Shown piece by piece: positions 1 to 38,891 of a stretch of DNA of 38,891 bases (its first letter is position 1; each line of letters opens with the position of its first letter). The notes beneath the pieces were generated by a model. That model was not told where the DNA came from and ran no database searches. It saw nothing but the letters and a program-made list of their open reading frames with translations. Source of the DNA: a virus (taxonomy: Duplodnaviria; Heunggongvirae; Uroviricota; Caudoviricetes); the IMG/VR virus record IMGVR_UViG_2576861092_000011, positions 1-38,891 of that record. The stretch is one strand, 5' to 3'. The position numbers and the translations under genes are program-made.

Positions 1-1158
1 ATGCTCACCGTTAAGCAGATTGAAGCAGCTAAGCCGAAAGAAAAACCATACCGCCTTCTCGATGGTAATGGCCTGTACCTTTATGTCCCTGTATCCGGGA
101 AAAAGGTATGGCAGCTTCGCTACAAGATTGACGGTAAGGAGAAAATCCTGACCGTCGGAAAATATCCGCTTATGACTTTGCAGGAAGCAAGGGATAAAGC
201 ATGGACCGCGAGGAAAGACATCTCGGTTGGCATCGATCCGGTAAAGGCGAAAAAGGCTTCGTCTAACAACAATTCATTTAGTGCGATTTACAAGGAATGG
301 TACGAGCACAAGAAGCAAGTCTGGTCAGTAGGCTATGCAACTGAACTTGCAAAAATGTTTGATGCCGACATTTTACCTATCATCGGCGGCCTTGAAATTC
401 AGGATATTGAGCCGATGCAACTGCTGGAAGTAATCCGCAGATTTGAAGATCGCGGTGCAATGGAGCGAGCCAACAAAGCCCGCAGAAGATGCGGCGAGGT
501 TTTCCGTTACGCTATTGTCACTGGTAGGGCTAAATATAACCCGGCACCTGACCTTGCTGACGCCATGAAGGGATACCGCAAGAAGAACTTCCCGTTTTTA
601 CCTGCCGACCAGATCTCGGCATTCAACAAAGCACTTGCAACATTTTCAGGAAGTATCGTATCGCTCATTGCCACCAAGGTTTTACGCTACACTGCCCTAA
701 GAACGAAAGAGCTTCGTTCCATGCTATGGAAGAACGTCGATTTTGAAAACAGGATTATCACCATCGACGCCAGTGTGATGAAGGGACGCAAAATTCATGT
801 GGTCCCGATGTCAGACCAGGTGGTTGAACTTCTCACTACGCTAAGCTCAATCACCAAACCAGTCTCAGAGTTTGTTTTTGCCGGGCGCAACGATAAGAAG
901 AAGCCAATCTGCGAGAACGCGGTATTGCTTGTGATCAAACAAATCGGCTATGAAGGTCTGGAAAGCGGTCACGGATTCAGGCATGAATTCAGCACGATTA
1001 TGAACGAGCACGAATGGCCTGCCGACGCCATTGAAGTGCAACTGGCACATGCCAACGGCGGTTCTGTACGTGGAATTTACAACCATGCTCAGTATCTCGA
1101 TAAGCGCAGAGAAATGATGCAGTGGTGGGCGGACTGGCTTGATGAAAAGGGGGAGTAA
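1..1158 (+). CDS. intS: P4-type tyrosine integrase (prophage integrase), 385 aa
   Basis: Full-length ORF. N-terminus MLTVKQIEAAKPKEKPYRLLDGNGLYLYV is typical of P4-family integrases; C-terminal HGFRHEF and IYNHAQY carry the catalytic H-x-x-R and Tyr. Matches my recollection of E. coli K-12 KplE1 IntS. Window begins at its ATG. Confidence 0.9.
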   Translation: MLTVKQIEAAKPKEKPYRLLDGNGLYLYVPVSGKKVWQLRYKIDGKEKILTVGKYPLMTLQEARDKAWTARKDISVGIDPVKAKKASSNNNSFSAIYKEWYEHKKQVWSVGYATELAKMFDADILPIIGGLEIQDIEPMQLLEVIRRFEDRGAMERANKARRRCGEVFRYAIVTGRAKYNPAPDLADAMKGYRKKNFPFLPADQISAFNKALATFSGSIVSLIATKVLRYTALRTKELRSMLWKNVDFENRIITIDASVMKGRKIHVVPMSDQVVELLTTLSSITKPVSEFVFAGRNDKKKPICENAVLLVIKQIGYEGLESGHGFRHEFSTIMNEHEWPADAIEVQLAHANGGSVRGIYNHAQYLDKRREMMQWWADWLDEKGE

Positions 1159-1348: not shown

Positions 1349-2416
1349 ATGAAACATATACAATCTTTAGATGGTGTGAGAGGTATTGCGGTGCTCATTG
1401 TAATGCTTTTTCATGCCAAAGTTTCAGGATTTTCTCTTGGTTGGTCTGGAGTTCCGCTGTTCTTTTGCTTATCTGGTTTCTTAATTACCTCAATCCTTAT
1501 CGAGGATAAAGACTCTGGTTTTAGTAACTATATTAAACGATTTCTTATAAATAGATCGCTTAGAATATTCCCGTTATTTTATGCTTACCTACTTGTTAAC
1601 TTTATTCTTCTAATTGCAACTGGGAAACCAACGGATGGTTATTTGTGGTTTATAACTTATCTACAAAACTATTATATAGGAATAAATGTTACAACACCTG
1701 GAATTTTGGGGCACACCTGGTCTCTTGCAGTGGAAGAACAATTTTACTGGCTTTGGCCTCTATTCATATTTTTCATAAACAAAAAGAATATGAATCTGAT
1801 TTTTATCATACTAATAATAACATCAAGTATATCAAGATATTTTATATTTCAAATCACTGATGGAAACCCATACATTGTAAATGTAACTCTTATCAGTTGC
1901 ATTGACATGTTAGTTCTTGGTGCTCTGTTTTCAAAGATAAAAGATGATAAGTACGCATATGAATCAGGATTTTTAACTTTTATAGCAGGTGTTGGGCTGG
2001 TTCTTAATGGAATAAATTCTGTTGGTCTTAATGCTTTTTGGAACCCTGTAGATTGGGCTGGGAAATGCTGGTATATGTTTACAGCGTTTGGGATGATTTT
2101 TTCATCTGCAATTTTTTTCATTTACAAGTGGAGTGTGCTAGGGAAAAAACAAATAATAACAAAAGCATTATCATTAAAGCCATTAACATTTACAGGAAAG
2201 ATAAGTTATGGTTTGTATATGTGGCATTTGCTGTGTTTTTCAATTGCAAACAAAATGTCCTCCTTGTTTGGGGTAAACAATAATGCTGTGATAATAGCAT
2301 GTGGGTTTGCTATCGCATATATAGTATCAATTGCATCATACTATCTTTTTGAAATACATTTTCTTAAATTAAAAAGAAAAACCAATAGAAATGAAGACAA
2401 TTTAGTTACAGTATAA
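1349..2416 (+). CDS. oac: Acyltransferase-3 family integral membrane protein, probable O-antigen O-acetyltransferase (lysogenic conversion)
   Basis: 355 aa, multi-pass hydrophobic; N-terminal motif LDGVRGIAVLIVMLFH typical of OafA/Oac acyltransferases. Markedly AT-rich versus flanking phage DNA. Sits between int and tailspike as in Sf6. Confidence 0.8.
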   Translation: MKHIQSLDGVRGIAVLIVMLFHAKVSGFSLGWSGVPLFFCLSGFLITSILIEDKDSGFSNYIKRFLINRSLRIFPLFYAYLLVNFILLIATGKPTDGYLWFITYLQNYYIGINVTTPGILGHTWSLAVEEQFYWLWPLFIFFINKKNMNLIFIILIITSSISRYFIFQITDGNPYIVNVTLISCIDMLVLGALFSKIKDDKYAYESGFLTFIAGVGLVLNGINSVGLNAFWNPVDWAGKCWYMFTAFGMIFSSAIFFIYKWSVLGKKQIITKALSLKPLTFTGKISYGLYMWHLLCFSIANKMSSLFGVNNNAVIIACGFAIAYIVSIASYYLFEIHFLKLKRKTNRNEDNLVTV

Positions 2417-2447
2417 AAATAGGGCGGGGAAACCGCCCTATTTTTAT
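2416..2447. terminator. Bidirectional Rho-independent terminator between convergent oac and tailspike
   Basis: Stem AGGGCGG / CCGCCCT with loop GGAAA, flanked by an A-run on one side and a T-run on the other (aaaat-agggcggggaaaccgcccta-tttttat). Confidence 0.75.
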
Positions 2448-4159
2448 CTATCCTCTCTCCACGCCTGCACGAAACATGTAACATTGATGTTTGATACTCC
2501 ATTTCCTGTGGTTGTATCATACACTCGAGCAATGGCAGTTCCACTGCTATGGTAAGTGTCAAAGCTCACTGCGTACTTGAATGGTGATGGCATAGTATTG
2601 GAGTGAAAATCTGGAACCGCCATTGCATATCTTGCATAGAATCCAAAGTTAATTATGTCTCCAGATTTTAAAGTAAGAATGTTTGTATAGTTAGGGGAGT
2701 TTGATATCTTCTCGTCAACACGTATTAGCCTCCCATTACCTTGGATAGTAATTACTGTGAATATTCGATTTGGATCATTGAGATAAACAACAGCTTCATC
2801 ACTGATAATTAGGTGACCTATTGTGCCATCGTCGTTGTAGATTTGAGGGTCGTTTATACGTACTACAGCGTTACCCCTAACCCGGAACAGGTAGGCATTT
2901 GCCCCTGCAGCGTTAACCCTGTTGAATGTCGGGGAGTTAAATGTAACCTCAGAACTAGAGGCGACCACGATAGCCTGGCTTCCTGCTGTAATTTTCCCGT
3001 TTGCAACGTCCATTTCGAAGTTAGGTTGATTAAATATGATTCCTCTTGAGTTCGTATCTATCTGCAGGAAATAAGCATTGGCGGACCCGTTATGTCCCAT
3101 GTTAAGCGCGTTGAATATCTGGTTGCTAGCGCCAGAAACTTTCACGGCATAAGCCGTCCAGTTTGCAACATAACACCCATTGAACACGTTTTGAATAATT
3201 GTTCCGTTACTGGATAGGTTAATCCCGATTCGGTTGTTATTGCACCTCATATTGTTATAAATATTTGAAAAATCAGCATATCCAGCGTTGTAACCAATAT
3301 CAAAGAAATCGAGATAAAGGTTGTTAAACTCACAGTTAACTGCCTTTCCGCAAAAAGACATGTCTATTCCGACCCCGCTACCAACAGGAGGACCGCCAGC
3401 AACAGATCCGTTAACTTGGAGATTCATGTTTGATATAGTAATCCCTCTAACGTCAGAGCCCTCAGGCTTTATTCCGATCGTGTTTATAGGAACGTTAACA
3501 ACTGTTGATGTTATGGATTCACCAGTTATGCTAGTTTTATTTTTTAACTCAAAATTACCGCTCCATACTCCATTAGGCACCTTCAGTAGACCATTGGCCT
3601 CACCTGTGGCAACGGCAATGTTGACAGGGTTTACGTTTTCATTTGTCGCCCCGTAACCACGGATATCACCAATTCTCTGATAGTCATCAACAGATATAAA
3701 ATCATGCACTGTCCTTCCATCGGTAATGCCAACCATGGAAGAACCTATTGATGATGCAAGACGCTGCTCAAGCTGATCCGGGTCGTACTTCAGTACATTC
3801 GGAAAATAAAACTGCTGCGCACCGTACGCATCATAAACAGCCATAGAATGGCCTTGCACGGTAACGAATTTGGCAATCTGTCCATTATATACAGGGTAAC
3901 CAGCAGCGTTAATGATGATTGGTTGCGAAACAGGAACGTGAGAGCCGTCTTCGCTCTCCATATAAACCTGAATCTGGTTTTCAGGATTTACCGGATCAGT
4001 GTCAATTTTTCCTATATAAATTTTGCCATTGGCAACCGCTTTAAAAGAACGTGCCATAGTGAAGAGTTGCGAAGGCATGCTTACCACAACATTTGCAGTG
4101 ATATCTGACATTTCATTGCTCCAGACGAATGATATGATGCAACCATGATGTGATTGCAT
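2444..4159 (-). CDS. Tailspike protein: P22 gp9-like N-terminal head-binding domain plus distinct beta-helix receptor-binding/O-antigen-depolymerase domain
   Basis: N-terminal ~110 aa ([46 protein letters not shown]...[15 protein letters not shown]...NVLKYDPDQ) closely matches the P22 gp9 head-binding domain; the rest is Asn/Gly/Ser-rich repetitive sequence typical of right-handed beta-helix. 3' part is AT-rich. Confidence 0.9.
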
Positions 4160-4232
4160 ACCAAAATGGTACTATTGAGTATTTATCCAGTAGGTTACGA
4201 TGCCATTCCACCCAACTGGTGAGGCATCAAGG

Positions 4233-4628
4233 ATGTACAGCAAATACGACGAGGCGCAGTTTCACTTGAGACTTCCGCATGAACTCCACGCGAAAATTAA
4301 ACAGCGCGCGAAGATGAATAAGAGGTAGCTGAACTCAGAGATAATTGCAGCGATTAAAGAATCATTGGCTAAACAAAGCTCTGCATCAGTTTACATTGAC
4401 GATGCAGAGCGTATGGCAGAACAACAATATGATATGGTTAAGAAATTGTCTTTGATACGCTCAAGGAGCTATATAAAAAAGACAGCAGCTAACCATCAGT
4501 TACGGAGGATTTATGCAAAGAGATATGCTGAATATTGCGTTCTACATATTTGGTTTTTGCACGTTCCTGGTGTTTGCGAAGCTATTCTGACAACGCATCA
4601 GACTTGGCACCCTGAGTCATGGCGTTAA
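4233..4628 (+). pseudogene. mnt: mnt-like ribbon-helix-helix repressor gene interrupted by in-frame amber codon (TAG at 4326..4328)
   Basis: From ATG 4233: MYSKYDEAQFHLRLPHELHAKIKQRAKMNKR-TAG-LNSEIIAAIKESLAKQSSASVYIDDAERMAEQQYDMVKK aligns with P22 Mnt (..PHFNFRMPMEVREKLKFRAEANGRSMNSELLQIV..NDAERLADEQSELVKK) in one frame; the stop replaces the conserved Ser. C-terminal reading extends into the 3' end of the ejection gene on the other strand. Confidence 0.55.
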
Positions 4629-6579
4629 TGGCCTTTTGCGCCTGCTGCATCGCTTTCTCAAACGCTGTTGATCCGCGTGGGGTGTTTGCCAGTCGGAGCA
4701 TTGCATTTCTGAATGGTTCGCTCTCATAGGCGCGAGTAAGAAGTCCGTAGCTTACTGCTGCGCCAGTTGTCGCCGGGTTCATTGCTGTCCCATATCCGAT
4801 AATGAACGGGATGGTTTGCTGCCCTGTTGGTGTTGTTACTGCCGCTTTTGCAGCCTGCTGCGTGGATTGCAGGTAGTTTTTCAATCCTTTCAGATAAGCA
4901 GCGTCCTGCCCCTTAAATGTGATGCCAGTCTGGTTTTGCAGGATGTTAAGCTGCCGAAGGAACTGGTCAGGGGATCCGCCAGATTTCTCCATCGCCTTTC
5001 CAATGATGCCATTGCGCATTTGCGCCCTGCCAACACGACCAACTGAGTTATACAGCGTCTTAATTTCCGATTTGTTCTTGCTGAATAGCATGTTGTTGAC
5101 AACTTCCGGCGTCAGGTCGCCTTTCATGAGAACATTCTTCAGCCTGGTATTCTTTAGTTTCGCCGCTTCGTCAGCGTAGACGGCATTGGCTTGCTGATAT
5201 TTACGGAGAGTATCGTTGCCAAGATTCTGACCAATGGCACCATTGATATCGTCAGTCATTGCCTTGTAAACGCGCTGAATGGCAGCATCGGAACGGTTTG
5301 GTAACACTGGTCGCTCACCCTTCACGTCCATTCTGAACTGGCTGCGCAGGTCGCTTAATTGCTTCAAATCCAGATTTACAGGACCATCAGGGCCAGCATT
5401 GCGAACAAGCTCATCACGATATGACTGAAGTTTTGAAATAGTCTCGTTATCAGCAACCTTACCAAGCTTCTGCAGGTTAGATATTTCTGTATCAATCTGC
5501 TGAATTGCTCGCGCAGGCTGAATGTTTACTCCAGCCATAGCATTCTGAACCTGTTCCAGTCGATTACCGGCGGCACGACGAATTCCTGATGTTTTCGCTT
5601 TAAGGCTGTCAATAACAACCGCTGGATCATACTCACCGAATTTATCAGCAAATCTCTGCACCAACTGGCTTCTCGCTTCCTGTTGCGTTGCTCTCATTCC
5701 GCTTGTGCCAGCCAGAGGGATATTTTCTGCTGTAGTCTGCGCCATTTTCCCGACGCGGGAGGTTGGTTGTAACAGGTCTGTGGTGTGCAGAGGAACTCCT
5801 TCACGCTCTGCAAATCTGATAGCCTGCTGCGCTTCTGGCGCGATAGCACCACGAACGCCACGATAAGTAGCACCTAATCCACGTCCGGCAGCGTTAATAG
5901 CACCGCCAGCAAGTACACCAACTCCTAAATCGGTGGCGAGTGCTTCCGCATCATCTTTCGCACTATTTGCAGCAAGTGATCCAACTGCGTTTTCTGCTAG
6001 AAGGCGAGTTGCCCCCTGAGCAATTCGACCAGCAAGTGTTGGTGCCTGTGCTGCCGCTCTCTCAACGCCAGCAGGAGTGAGGTAAGGCAATGCTTCAGCA
6101 AATACCCTTCCCTCTGTCGTTTGTGGAGTCAGCGCTCCTTGCTGAAGGCCAAAGTCCTGCTCTAATCCCTGCGTTGTTACTCGTGGCGCTGGTTGATATG
6201 TACCATCGCCAATACCGAGTTTACCGCCAGCCCATGCCGCCGCGCTTGTTACAGCATCGGCAACTGATGCAGGTATGTTTGCCACGTTCACGCCAGCCTG
6301 CACCAGTCCGCGACCAGTCTCTTTTACTGCTTCACCAAGATCAGACATAAATCCACTTTGCTGTGGTTGTTGCTGTGCTACTGGTTGTTGTGTCTCCACT
6401 GGCTGCACAGATGGCAATGGATAGGCAGCATAGAAAGCTTGCTTAGCCTGCTCTGCATTTTCTCCGGCTTGCGGGGCCACGACTTCATTGAAGTATTGCT
6501 CCTGAGCCTGCGCTTTTTGTTCTGGTGCTAACGCCTGATACTGTGGAGAGGCGATAACATCTTTCCATGCTTTAGCCAT
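4582..6579 (-). CDS. DNA ejection (pilot) protein, P22 gp16-like
   Basis: 665 aa; position immediately after gp20-like gene in the conserved P22 order 14-7-20-16; Ala/Gln-rich low-complexity composition typical of ejection proteins. Confidence 0.75.
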   Translation of the reverse strand: MAKAWKDVIASPQYQALAPEQKAQAQEQYFNEVVAPQAGENAEQAKQAFYAAYPLPSVQPVETQQPVAQQQPQQSGFMSDLGEAVKETGRGLVQAGVNVANIPASVADAVTSAAAWAGGKLGIGDGTYQPAPRVTTQGLEQDFGLQQGALTPQTTEGRVFAEALPYLTPAGVERAAAQAPTLAGRIAQGATRLLAENAVGSLAANSAKDDAEALATDLGVGVLAGGAINAAGRGLGATYRGVRGAIAPEAQQAIRFAEREGVPLHTTDLLQPTSRVGKMAQTTAENIPLAGTSGMRATQQEARSQLVQRFADKFGEYDPAVVIDSLKAKTSGIRRAAGNRLEQVQNAMAGVNIQPARAIQQIDTEISNLQKLGKVADNETISKLQSYRDELVRNAGPDGPVNLDLKQLSDLRSQFRMDVKGERPVLPNRSDAAIQRVYKAMTDDINGAIGQNLGNDTLRKYQQANAVYADEAAKLKNTRLKNVLMKGDLTPEVVNNMLFSKNKSEIKTLYNSVGRVGRAQMRNGIIGKAMEKSGGSPDQFLRQLNILQNQTGITFKGQDAAYLKGLKNYLQSTQQAAKAAVTTPTGQQTIPFIIGYGTAMNPATTGAAVSYGLLTRAYESEPFRNAMLRLANTPRGSTAFEKAMQQAQKAINAMTQGAKSDALSE

Positions 6580-37643: not shown

Positions 37644-38891
37644 CTATATTGCTGAAGGTACAGGCGTTTCCATAACTATTTGCTCGCGTTTTTTACTCAA
37701 GAAGAAAATGCCAAATAGCAACATCAGGCAGACAATACCCGAAATTGCGAAGAAAACTGTCTGGTAGCCTGCGTGGTCAAAGAGTATCCCAGTCGGCGTT
37801 GAAAGCAGCACAATCCCAAGCGAACTGGCAATTTGAAAACCAATCAGAAAGATCGTCGACGACAGGCGCTTATCAAAGTTTGCCACGCTGTATTTGAAGA
37901 CGGATATGACACAAAGTGGAACCTCAATGGCATGTAACAACTTCACTAATGAAATAATCCAGGGGTTAACGAACAGCGCGCAGGAAAGGATACGCAACGC
38001 CATAATCACAACTCCGATAAGTAATGCATTTTTTGGCCCTACCCGATTCACAAAGAAAGGAATAATCGCCATGCACAGCGCTTCGAGTACCACCTGGAAT
38101 GAGTTGAGATAACCATACAGGCGCGTTCCTACATCGTGTGATTCGAATAAACCTGCATAAAAGACAGGAAAAAGTTGTTGATCAAAAATGTTATAGAAAG
38201 ACCACGTCCCCACAATAAATATGACGAAAACCCAGAAGTTTCGATCCTTGAAAACTGCGATAAAATCCTCTTTTTTTACCCCTCCCGCATCTGCCGCTAC
38301 GCACTGGTGATCCTTATCTTTAAAACGCATGTTGATCATCATAAATACAGCGCCAAATAGCGAGACCAACCAGAAGTTGATATGGGGACTGATACTAAAA
38401 AATATGCCGGCAAAGAACGCGCCAATAGCATAGCCAAAAGATCCCCAGGCGCGCGCTGTTCCATATTCGAAATGAAAATTTCGCGCCATTTTTTCGGTGA
38501 AGCTATCAAGCAAACCGCATCCCGCCAGATACCCCAAGCCAAAAAATAGCGCCCCCAGAATTAGACCTACAGAAAAATTGCTTTGCAGTAACGGTTCATA
38601 AACGTAAATCATAAACGGTCCGGTCAAGACCAGGATGAAACTCATACACCAGATGAGCGGTTTCTTCAGACCGAGTTTATCCTGAACGATGCCGTAGAAC
38701 ATCATAAATAGAATGCTGGTAAACTGGTTGACCGAATAAAGTGTACCTAATTCCGTCCCTGTCAACCCTAGATGTCCTTTCAGCCAAATAGCGTATAACG
38801 ACCACCACAGCGACCAGGAAATAAAAAAGAGAAATGAGTAACTGGATGCAAAACGATAGTACGCATTTCTGAATGGAATATTCAGTGCCAT
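37644..38891 (-). CDS. cscB: Sucrose:H+ symporter (LacY-family oligosaccharide permease), host gene
   Basis: 415 aa, 12-TM MFS pattern; matches my recollection of E. coli CscB (MALNIPFRNAYYRFASSYSFLFFISWSLWWSLYAIWLKG...). Window ends at its start codon. Confidence 0.85.
   Translation of the reverse strand: MALNIPFRNAYYRFASSYSFLFFISWSLWWSLYAIWLKGHLGLTGTELGTLYSVNQFTSILFMMFYGIVQDKLGLKKPLIWCMSFILVLTGPFMIYVYEPLLQSNFSVGLILGALFFGLGYLAGCGLLDSFTEKMARNFHFEYGTARAWGSFGYAIGAFFAGIFFSISPHINFWLVSLFGAVFMMINMRFKDKDHQCVAADAGGVKKEDFIAVFKDRNFWVFVIFIVGTWSFYNIFDQQLFPVFYAGLFESHDVGTRLYGYLNSFQVVLEALCMAIIPFFVNRVGPKNALLIGVVIMALRILSCALFVNPWIISLVKLLHAIEVPLCVISVFKYSVANFDKRLSSTIFLIGFQIASSLGIVLLSTPTGILFDHAGYQTVFFAISGIVCLMLLFGIFFLSKKREQIVMETPVPSAI

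Follow-up and report, generated by a model that had tools for sequence, protein, structure and literature searches.

One of the closest known systems is that of phage P22, whose Mnt repressor is reportedly encoded in an immI region of the order mnt-arc-ant (Sauer et al. 1983) and is represented by the structures 1MNT and 1QEY. An orphan mnt is present in the ant moron of the phages ST64T, ST104 and L (PMC2629481; Zaworski et al. 2020, PMC8022706), and whether such an orphan gene is functional or a remnant was left undecided (PMC2629481, PMC8022706). In addition, Villafane et al. 2008 (PMC2629481) considered that the ant moron of P22 and the repressors encoded in it might have a role in expressing the tailspike. 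This report describes an orphan mnt gene at 4233-4492 of a P22-like prophage, which very probably is an ordinary pseudogene with two independent inactivating lesions, and compares it with the copies of its relatives.

The DNA studied here, hereafter called the window, is the whole stretch of 38,891 nucleotides from the IMG/VR record IMGVR_UViG_2576861092_000011. A P4-type integrase gene (1-1158, plus strand) is located at its left end and the last gene (37644-38891, minus strand) encodes a host oligosaccharide MFS transporter of the lacY/cscB-like type (415 aa; TIGR00882, 8.8e-179), so the window represents a P22-like (Lederbergvirus) prophage that is integrated in an E. coli-type chromosome and is arranged as in E. 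coli W (tRNA-Arg/intS). The left end of the E. coli W prophage has the same layout as the window, that is, tRNA-Arg, intS, acyltransferase, tailspike, "Arc family DNA-binding protein" and gp16. Between int and the tailspike gene lies an AT-rich gene (1349-2416, plus strand, GC about 0.32) of the acyltransferase family, presumably for O-antigen modification and lysogenic conversion; relatives have other acyltransferases or gtrA/gtrB-type genes at this position. The tailspike gene (2444-4111, minus strand), with a P22 gp9-type N-terminal head-binding domain, is divergent from mnt (4233-4492, plus strand), which was delimited from three-frame translations and from the intact ORFs of IME10 and Sf101. 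The gene of the gp16-type DNA ejection (transfer) protein (4582-6579, minus strand), assigned by the annotation of relatives, is convergent with mnt. The ORF chain of structural and early genes is uninterrupted and the prophage looks otherwise intact over this chain and the about 8 kb compared directly. The closest phage records are IME10 and Sf101 (97.6-97.8% identity over 4100-4600). The gp16 gene is mosaic among these phages, encoding 665 aa in the window, E. coli W and H1, 797 aa in IME10 (L001, 3484-5877) and 911 aa in Sf101 (L002, 3412-6147), the longer forms of IME10 and Sf101 having an extra N-terminal segment of the lytic transglycosylase type, and the Sf101 sequence departs directly after the mnt stop codon, which marks a recombination boundary.

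The start of the tailspike gene is ATG 4111-4109 (MSDITANVV), which is preceded by GGAG and matches P22 gp9 and the RefSeq annotation of relatives; an in-frame upstream ATG at 4159 was rejected by comparison with the starts of P22 gp9 and of the RefSeq relatives. Consequently, the control region between tailspike and mnt, aligned to P22, IME10, JEP4 and VSe13, is 121 bp long (4112-4232) and not 73 bp as given in a first-pass annotation of this DNA, which had also taken the spacer and mnt as the sole remains of an immunity-I region; a conserved 25-codon ORF at 4513-4590 lies between tailspike and gp16 as well. That annotation was right in finding no arc/ant partner. The proteins Arc, Ant, SieA and Orf59a of P22 and the ant-type proteins of CUS-3, Kapi1, JEP4 and VSe13 were used as tblastn queries, and no homologue of arc, ant, sieA or orf59a was detected in the 38.9 kb window (E > 0.1 throughout; the best match of arc, E = 0.18, lies elsewhere in the window). 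Homologues of the ant, KilA, Rha and BRO types were likewise not found in the window by tblastn, the tailspike gene follows directly after the operator, and the 121-bp spacer is too small for arc or sar. Thus the window has no ant under Mnt and no arc or sar as in a P22-type immI, while it has what defines an ant moron, an insert between the gp16 and tailspike genes which is transcribed against the late operon and is variable in content. The inserts of relatives at this position include an HNH endonuclease, KilA/Rha genes, arc-ant and other short ORFs.

The protein encoded by the intact relatives IME10 and Sf101 consists of 86 aa, with an N-terminal ribbon-helix-helix (RHH) and a C-terminal Mnt tetramerisation helix. 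It matches Pfam Arc (PF03869, 7.7e-15, residues 7-49) and Repressor_Mnt (PF11423, 8.9e-15, residues 57-82) as well as the PDB entries 1mnt (P22 Mnt N-terminal domain, 3.4e-19) and 1qey (tetramerisation domain, 1.7e-8), and is 48.8% identical to P22 Mnt over 93% of its length. In the window, the beta-strand motif x-F-x-L/F-R-x-P and the helix B start G/N-R-S-x-N-S-E are recognizable, with the Ser codon being TAG, and the C-terminal coiled-coil tetramerisation domain (DAERxAxxQSxxVKKxVFDTLKxLYKK) is still encoded but split over two frames by a deletion. The assignment of an Mnt homologue starting at ATG 4233 is hence confirmed by the matches of the intact relative and by an alignment over the whole length once the frameshift is corrected, and even the 31-residue fragment upstream of the TAG still scores as Arc (5e-05). 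The relatives' protein WP_000287053.1 is annotated as "Arc family DNA-binding protein" or, wrongly, as "partition protein ATPase", and the RefSeq records of Sf101 (NC_027398), P22 (NC_002371), ST64T and ST104 call the mnt product a "partition protein ATPase" or a "putative chromosome segregation ATPase". The "partition protein ATPase" labels are a propagated misannotation of an 83-97-aa ribbon-helix-helix repressor. The annotated Sf101 gene (L002, 3101-3394) starts further upstream, at another ATG, and so encodes 97 aa.

Read from ATG 4233, the frame gives MYSKYDEAQFHLRLPHELHAKIKQRAKMNKR up to a TAG at 4326-4328 and LNSEII... beyond it, so that alignment and translation place an amber codon (TCG to TAG, plus strand) at codon 32, which belongs to the loop preceding helix B in the RHH fold. 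It replaces the Ser of R-S-x-N-S-E, which is conserved in all eight aligned homologues including P22 Mnt and P22 Arc, just as had been proposed. Among 88 related copies pulled from IMG/VR by a degenerate 30-mer, the codon for Ser32 is TCG in 87 and TAG in one. The second lesion was overlooked at first: a one-base deletion (AAAA to AAA, 4443-4446, plus strand) at the boundary of codons 71 and 72 causes a -1 frameshift. Where relatives have GTT AAG AAA ATT GTC TTT GAT, the window has GTT AAG AAA TTG TCT TTG AT; the deletion is absent from all of the six relatives compared, and IME10 and Sf101 are one base longer over the same stretch. Consequently, frame 1 (4233-4445) contains mnt codons 1-71, whereas the final 14 codons and the stop are read in frame 3 (4448-4492), the homologous C-terminus VFDTLKELYKKDSS* sitting in frame +2 and ending at TAA 4490-4492. 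Furthermore, the window has three private missense changes as compared with relatives, 4322 AAC to AAG (N30K), 4356 GAA to AAA (E42K) and 4429 TCT to TAT (S66Y), whose bases are found in none of 60 relatives of the same length.

An uninterrupted frame for an Mnt protein of about 83-88 residues is therefore absent from the window copy, owing to the TAG and the frameshift. The single frame running to 4628 that had been assumed earlier does not exist as such, since one A is missing at 4443-4445 and the true C-terminus ends at 4490-4492; the C-terminal extension supposed to run over the ejection gene results from the frameshift and is an artefact, an out-of-frame read-through. In the same way, the 87-codon ORF starting with TTG at 4365-4628 was ruled out as a gene, since it is out-of-frame read-through beyond the missed frameshift. 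In annotation, the window mnt should be flagged as a pseudogene and the TTG ORF 4365-4628 should not be called.

As to other occurrences, an exact-protein look-up with the truncated 42-aa ORF gave no record and no second copy of the exact window haplotype was present in the collections searched. None of 5,426 E. coli genomes contained a TAG-bearing 62-mer as an exact match, in a search which a TAG allele with one further difference would escape. E. coli matches which aligned over 501 and not 502 bases were considered, but the deletion is absent from them. The TCG to TAG change itself is found again in an IMG/VR sequence (L047, IMGVR_UViG_3300045988_132863) and an ENA metagenome contig (L097, ERZ772969 NODE-1088), which show no difference between them over 14 kb (100% identity) and share about 96% identity with the window. 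Their local haplotype differs from that of the window by three differences within 30 nt, and the amber codon is their only lesion, with no frameshift and none of the missense changes of the window. A scan with a TAG-bearing 30-mer gave one metagenome contig, identical to L047, and no species-representative genome. The amber codon of these two loci either arose a second time independently, at a hot spot or under selection, or is an old allele that recombination has transferred, in two lineages altogether.

The lesions are most likely real and specific to mnt. The gene has five private or rare changes in 260 bp against 12 in 2,259 bp of the flanks, that is, 3.7-fold more (Fisher p = 0.025, with small counts), and none of the four substitutions in mnt are synonymous against six of the eight private changes in gp16 (p = 0.03, again with small counts), in which the remaining two are conservative. 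Moreover, when about 8 kb were aligned to six relatives, no net frame-changing indel other than the missing A was found. Relaxed constraint in the window mnt, that is, gene-specific decay, fits these data best. The rival that survives best, a sequencing or assembly artefact in which mnt is intact in the strain itself and the TAG as well as the missing A were introduced by error, is improbable. It draws on the position of the deletion in an A-run, a shortened homopolymer being a typical error of 454, Ion Torrent and nanopore sequencing, and on the absence of the exact haplotype of the window from every other sequence searched. However, it needs five clustered errors within 260 bp with no net frame-changing indel in the other 8 kb or so, the predominance of synonymous changes in gp16 is a signature of selection and not of random error, and the recurrence of TCG to TAG in an independent metagenome lineage makes the mutation biologically attainable.

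Whether the orphan state itself explains the decay can be judged from the relatives. The unit of tailspike, palindrome and mnt occurs in the prophages of 413 of 5,426 complete E. coli genomes, and mnt is full length in 84 of the 87 evaluable related copies, the exceptions being the amber lineage L047/L097 and a fusion by deletion in L046 (IMGVR_UViG_3300029577_000273). In the latter, mnt is fused in frame after codon ~67 to an unrelated coding sequence by deletion or rearrangement. What looked like shortened alleles (78 and 79 aa, and also those of L175 and L180) proved to be loci cut off at their ends and were discarded. Among the intact copies, 32 variants are synonymous (49.3 sites) and 30 are non-synonymous (208.7 sites), which gives a pN/pS of 0.22 (binomial p = 1e-8), and the annotation of several E. 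coli chromosomes includes the identical protein WP_000287053.1. The orphan mnt is kept by purifying selection in this clade, so orphan status alone does not make the gene dispensable. It had been suggested that the decay is tied to the absence of the antirepressor, but the layout without ant and arc is the usual one in the clade and the gene is full length and constrained there, so the absence of ant is no explanation of the decay. Among the relatives, an HNH endonuclease gene lies between the tailspike gene and the mnt control region in E. coli 357900 (L098, 993-1502) and in Kapi1 (L093, 743-1243). The prophage of E. coli 357900 is otherwise badly degraded, gp16 being gone and the helicase and erf genes being fragments, while its mnt still encodes an intact WP_000287053.1.

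The second rival is adaptive loss, in which the inactivation of mnt was selected, for example by de-repressing transcription toward the tailspike or by altering the expression of the 25-codon ORF. The fact that all five changes are non-synonymous or disruptive and that the identical nonsense mutation lies on a different haplotype in L047/L097 would be in line with it. But broken alleles are rare (about 3/87) and the intact ones are under purifying selection; besides, two knock-outs are redundant under selection for loss whereas they are expected under drift after a first hit, and a recurrence in only two lineages among a few dozen possible nonsense sites may be due to chance or a mutational hot spot. 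Adaptive loss is thus highly improbable. The last rival, a conditional gene whose amber codon is read by a suppressor tRNA (e.g., supE) and whose frame is corrected by slippage to give regulated, low-level Mnt, has next to no chance even though the same amber recurs as the only lesion in L047/L097, because the -1 frameshift lies at a non-slippery site (GTT AAG AAA TTG, with no X XXY YYZ heptamer), three A in a row are much too few for slippage during transcription, the window contains neither a tRNA nor a suppressor gene, 84 of 87 relatives have an ordinary TCG and an unbroken frame, and the extra private missense changes fit drift and not a maintained recoding device. Programmed frameshifting was likewise rejected, T AAG AAA T not being slippery, and the suppressor-dependent gene offered earlier falls as well, since the frameshift downstream would still cost the last 15 residues of the tetramerisation helix. 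A decaying pseudogene is accordingly the best of the three options that the first-pass annotation had left side by side, and it is strengthened by the second lesion and the three private missense changes.

The control region of 121 bp is homologous to the Omnt/Pant/Pmnt region of P22, with which it has the octamer CTCAATAG (minus strand) in common, and is near-invariant in 79 loci. On the minus strand, P22 reads ...TATATT CTCAATAG GTCCACGGTGGAC..., that is, the -10 of Pant followed by the mnt operator, and the window reads ...TAAATA CTCAATAG TACCATTTTGGTA.... Directly after the octamer, at the position of the P22 mnt operator (GTCCAC-G-GTGGAC), the window has a 13-bp palindrome, TACCA-AAA-TGGTA (4159-4171), which is presumed from this position to be the Mnt operator. 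The distance from its centre to the equivalent of the Pmnt -35 is 10 bp, the same as in P22. As an exact match the palindrome is unique in the window. It occurs once per related locus, always beside mnt, and phages with an Mnt of 63-68% identity still have it between mnt and the start of the tailspike gene. Its alleles are TACCG..CGGTA, TACCA..TGGTA and TACCG..TGGTA, the first two of which preserve or restore the symmetry. In scanning IMG/VR for the palindrome, only copies beside mnt and a tailspike gene were used; the many other matches were unrelated and due to chance, among them two copies separated by 515 bp in contigs that lack mnt. The recognition strand, Q-F-H-L-R here and H-F-N-F-R in P22, is in line with a different half-site; in an attempt to follow the co-variation of recognition strand and operator, no clear operators were discernible by eye in CUS-3 and Kapi1.

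By homology only, the equivalent of Pmnt on the plus strand would consist of the hexamers TTGAGT (4175-4180) and TACGAT (4196-4201) with a 15-nt spacer, and that of Pant on the minus strand of the degenerate hexamers ATGGCA (4206-4201) and TAAATA (4185-4180), likewise separated by 15 nt. The sequence TGgTACTAT (4167-4175), which overlaps the palindrome, may be an extended -10. A consensus scan found no strong sigma-70 site in the spacer and called none of these candidate promoters, and a scan for promoters and terminators gave a single promoter-like site, at chance level, inside the tailspike start. Folding of the leader RNAs gave no significant structure, either for mnt (4196-4245, z = -1.8) or for the tailspike gene (z = -1.3). 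The mnt leader has an inverted repeat, GATGCC...GGCATC (4199-4228), with an inner CACC/GGTG pair, which covers the likely SD (GAGG, 4221-4224) and is near-invariant even where the flanks of relatives differ, the variation being in the central CAACT "loop". This repeat could be an RNA hairpin or a second protein site. In JEP4 and VSe13 (L003/L004, 2950-3000), the tailspike leader beside the mnt operator is homologous to the gene 9 leader of P22 (CACCGTAGCCATGCTGCGGC...), and in P22 (L091, 1085-1110 and 1195-1222) this leader is present twice, flanking a short segment downstream of the ant terminator. The repeated P22 leaders look like "boundary sequences" at which the content of the ant moron may be exchanged or deleted.

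Downstream of mnt, the 25-codon hydrophobic ORF MQRDMLNIAFYIFGFCTFLVFAKLF (4513-4590, plus strand) is preceded by GGAGG at 4504-4508 and shares 9 nt with the 3' end of gp16. All 50 related loci carrying the segment have it as an open frame of exactly 25 codons, with 12 non-synonymous, mostly conservative, and nine synonymous variants, and there is no Pfam match. The ORF probably encodes a small membrane peptide co-transcribed with mnt.

By homology with P22, intact Mnt would be made from the prophage and bind the palindrome as a tetramer, and it may control the divergent region of mnt and the tailspike gene by autoregulation of Pmnt and/or by keeping leftward transcripts from entering the tailspike gene. 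An action in trans, on incoming phages with matching operators, is conceivable too. In the window, translation would end at the TAG of codon 32 after 31 residues, comprising the beta-strand and helix A, so that helix B and the tetramerisation helix would be missing and no ribbon-helix-helix dimer would form; the deletion at codon 71/72 would by itself destroy the tetramerisation helix. Because of this downstream frameshift, no functional full-length Mnt could be made even in an amber-suppressing host. After the first hit, whichever it was, neutral drift would have let the gene gather the three private missense changes, the order of mutations being a matter of inference. It is plausible that the loss was tolerated because, with no antirepressor present, the loss of Mnt could not induce the prophage.

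A bolder reading, unlikely but worth stating, is that the unit of orphan mnt, palindrome and tailspike is a maintained regulatory module and not a relic of immI, in which Mnt would gate tailspike transcription or confer immunity in trans against relatives carrying ant, and in which the Ser32 amber on two unrelated haplotypes would reflect recurrent selection for, or a hot spot of, loss. The unit is conserved across Mnt proteins down to about 63% identity and is subject to purifying selection. Under the preferred reading of an ordinary pseudogene, the window copy is a contrast case, namely, an orphan mnt without selection which has gathered only non-synonymous and disruptive changes, and the conserved orphan module of the relatives is a more interesting object than the broken copy. 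The several hundred intact copies in E. coli, with a pN/pS of about 0.22 and a conserved operator-like palindrome that faces the tailspike gene, bear on the question raised in the P22 literature of whether mnt without arc and ant is functional or a remnant, and the natural allele with amber codon and frameshift, compared with WP_000287053.1, provides a simple test system.

When the known systems are compared, the locus resembles P22 in that the protein, with the frameshift corrected, has the same two domains (RHH and tetramerisation helix) at 48.8% identity, in that mnt is located between gene 16 and gene 9 and is oriented against the late operon, and in that the upstream region has CTCAATAG and a 13-bp palindrome at the place of Omnt. 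It differs from P22 in that arc, ant, sar, sieA and orf59a are absent and mnt abuts the tailspike leader, in that the palindrome is TACCnAAAnGGTA in the window and GTCCACnGTGGAC in P22, and in that the hexamers equivalent to Pant are degenerate and mnt is broken twice. The likeness to ST64T, ST104 and phage L lies in the interval between gene 16 and the tailspike gene, which holds just an mnt homologue and one short ORF. However, these are Salmonella phages with an Mnt about 49% identical, and the E. coli clade has its own 25-codon ORF; the purifying selection on its intact members argues for function, whereas the window copy is a true remnant. The nearest are the prophages of E. coli W and H1 and the phages IME10 and Sf101 (WP_000287053.1), which are 97.6-98.6% identical in nucleotide sequence over 4100-4600 and have the same layout of int, acyltransferase/gtr, tailspike, mnt and gp16, but whose protein is an intact 86 aa while the window has the S32 amber, the one-base deletion, N30K, E42K and S66Y. 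Overall, the window mnt belongs to a known repressor family, has been inactivated twice, and lies in a genomic arrangement that is both known and common.
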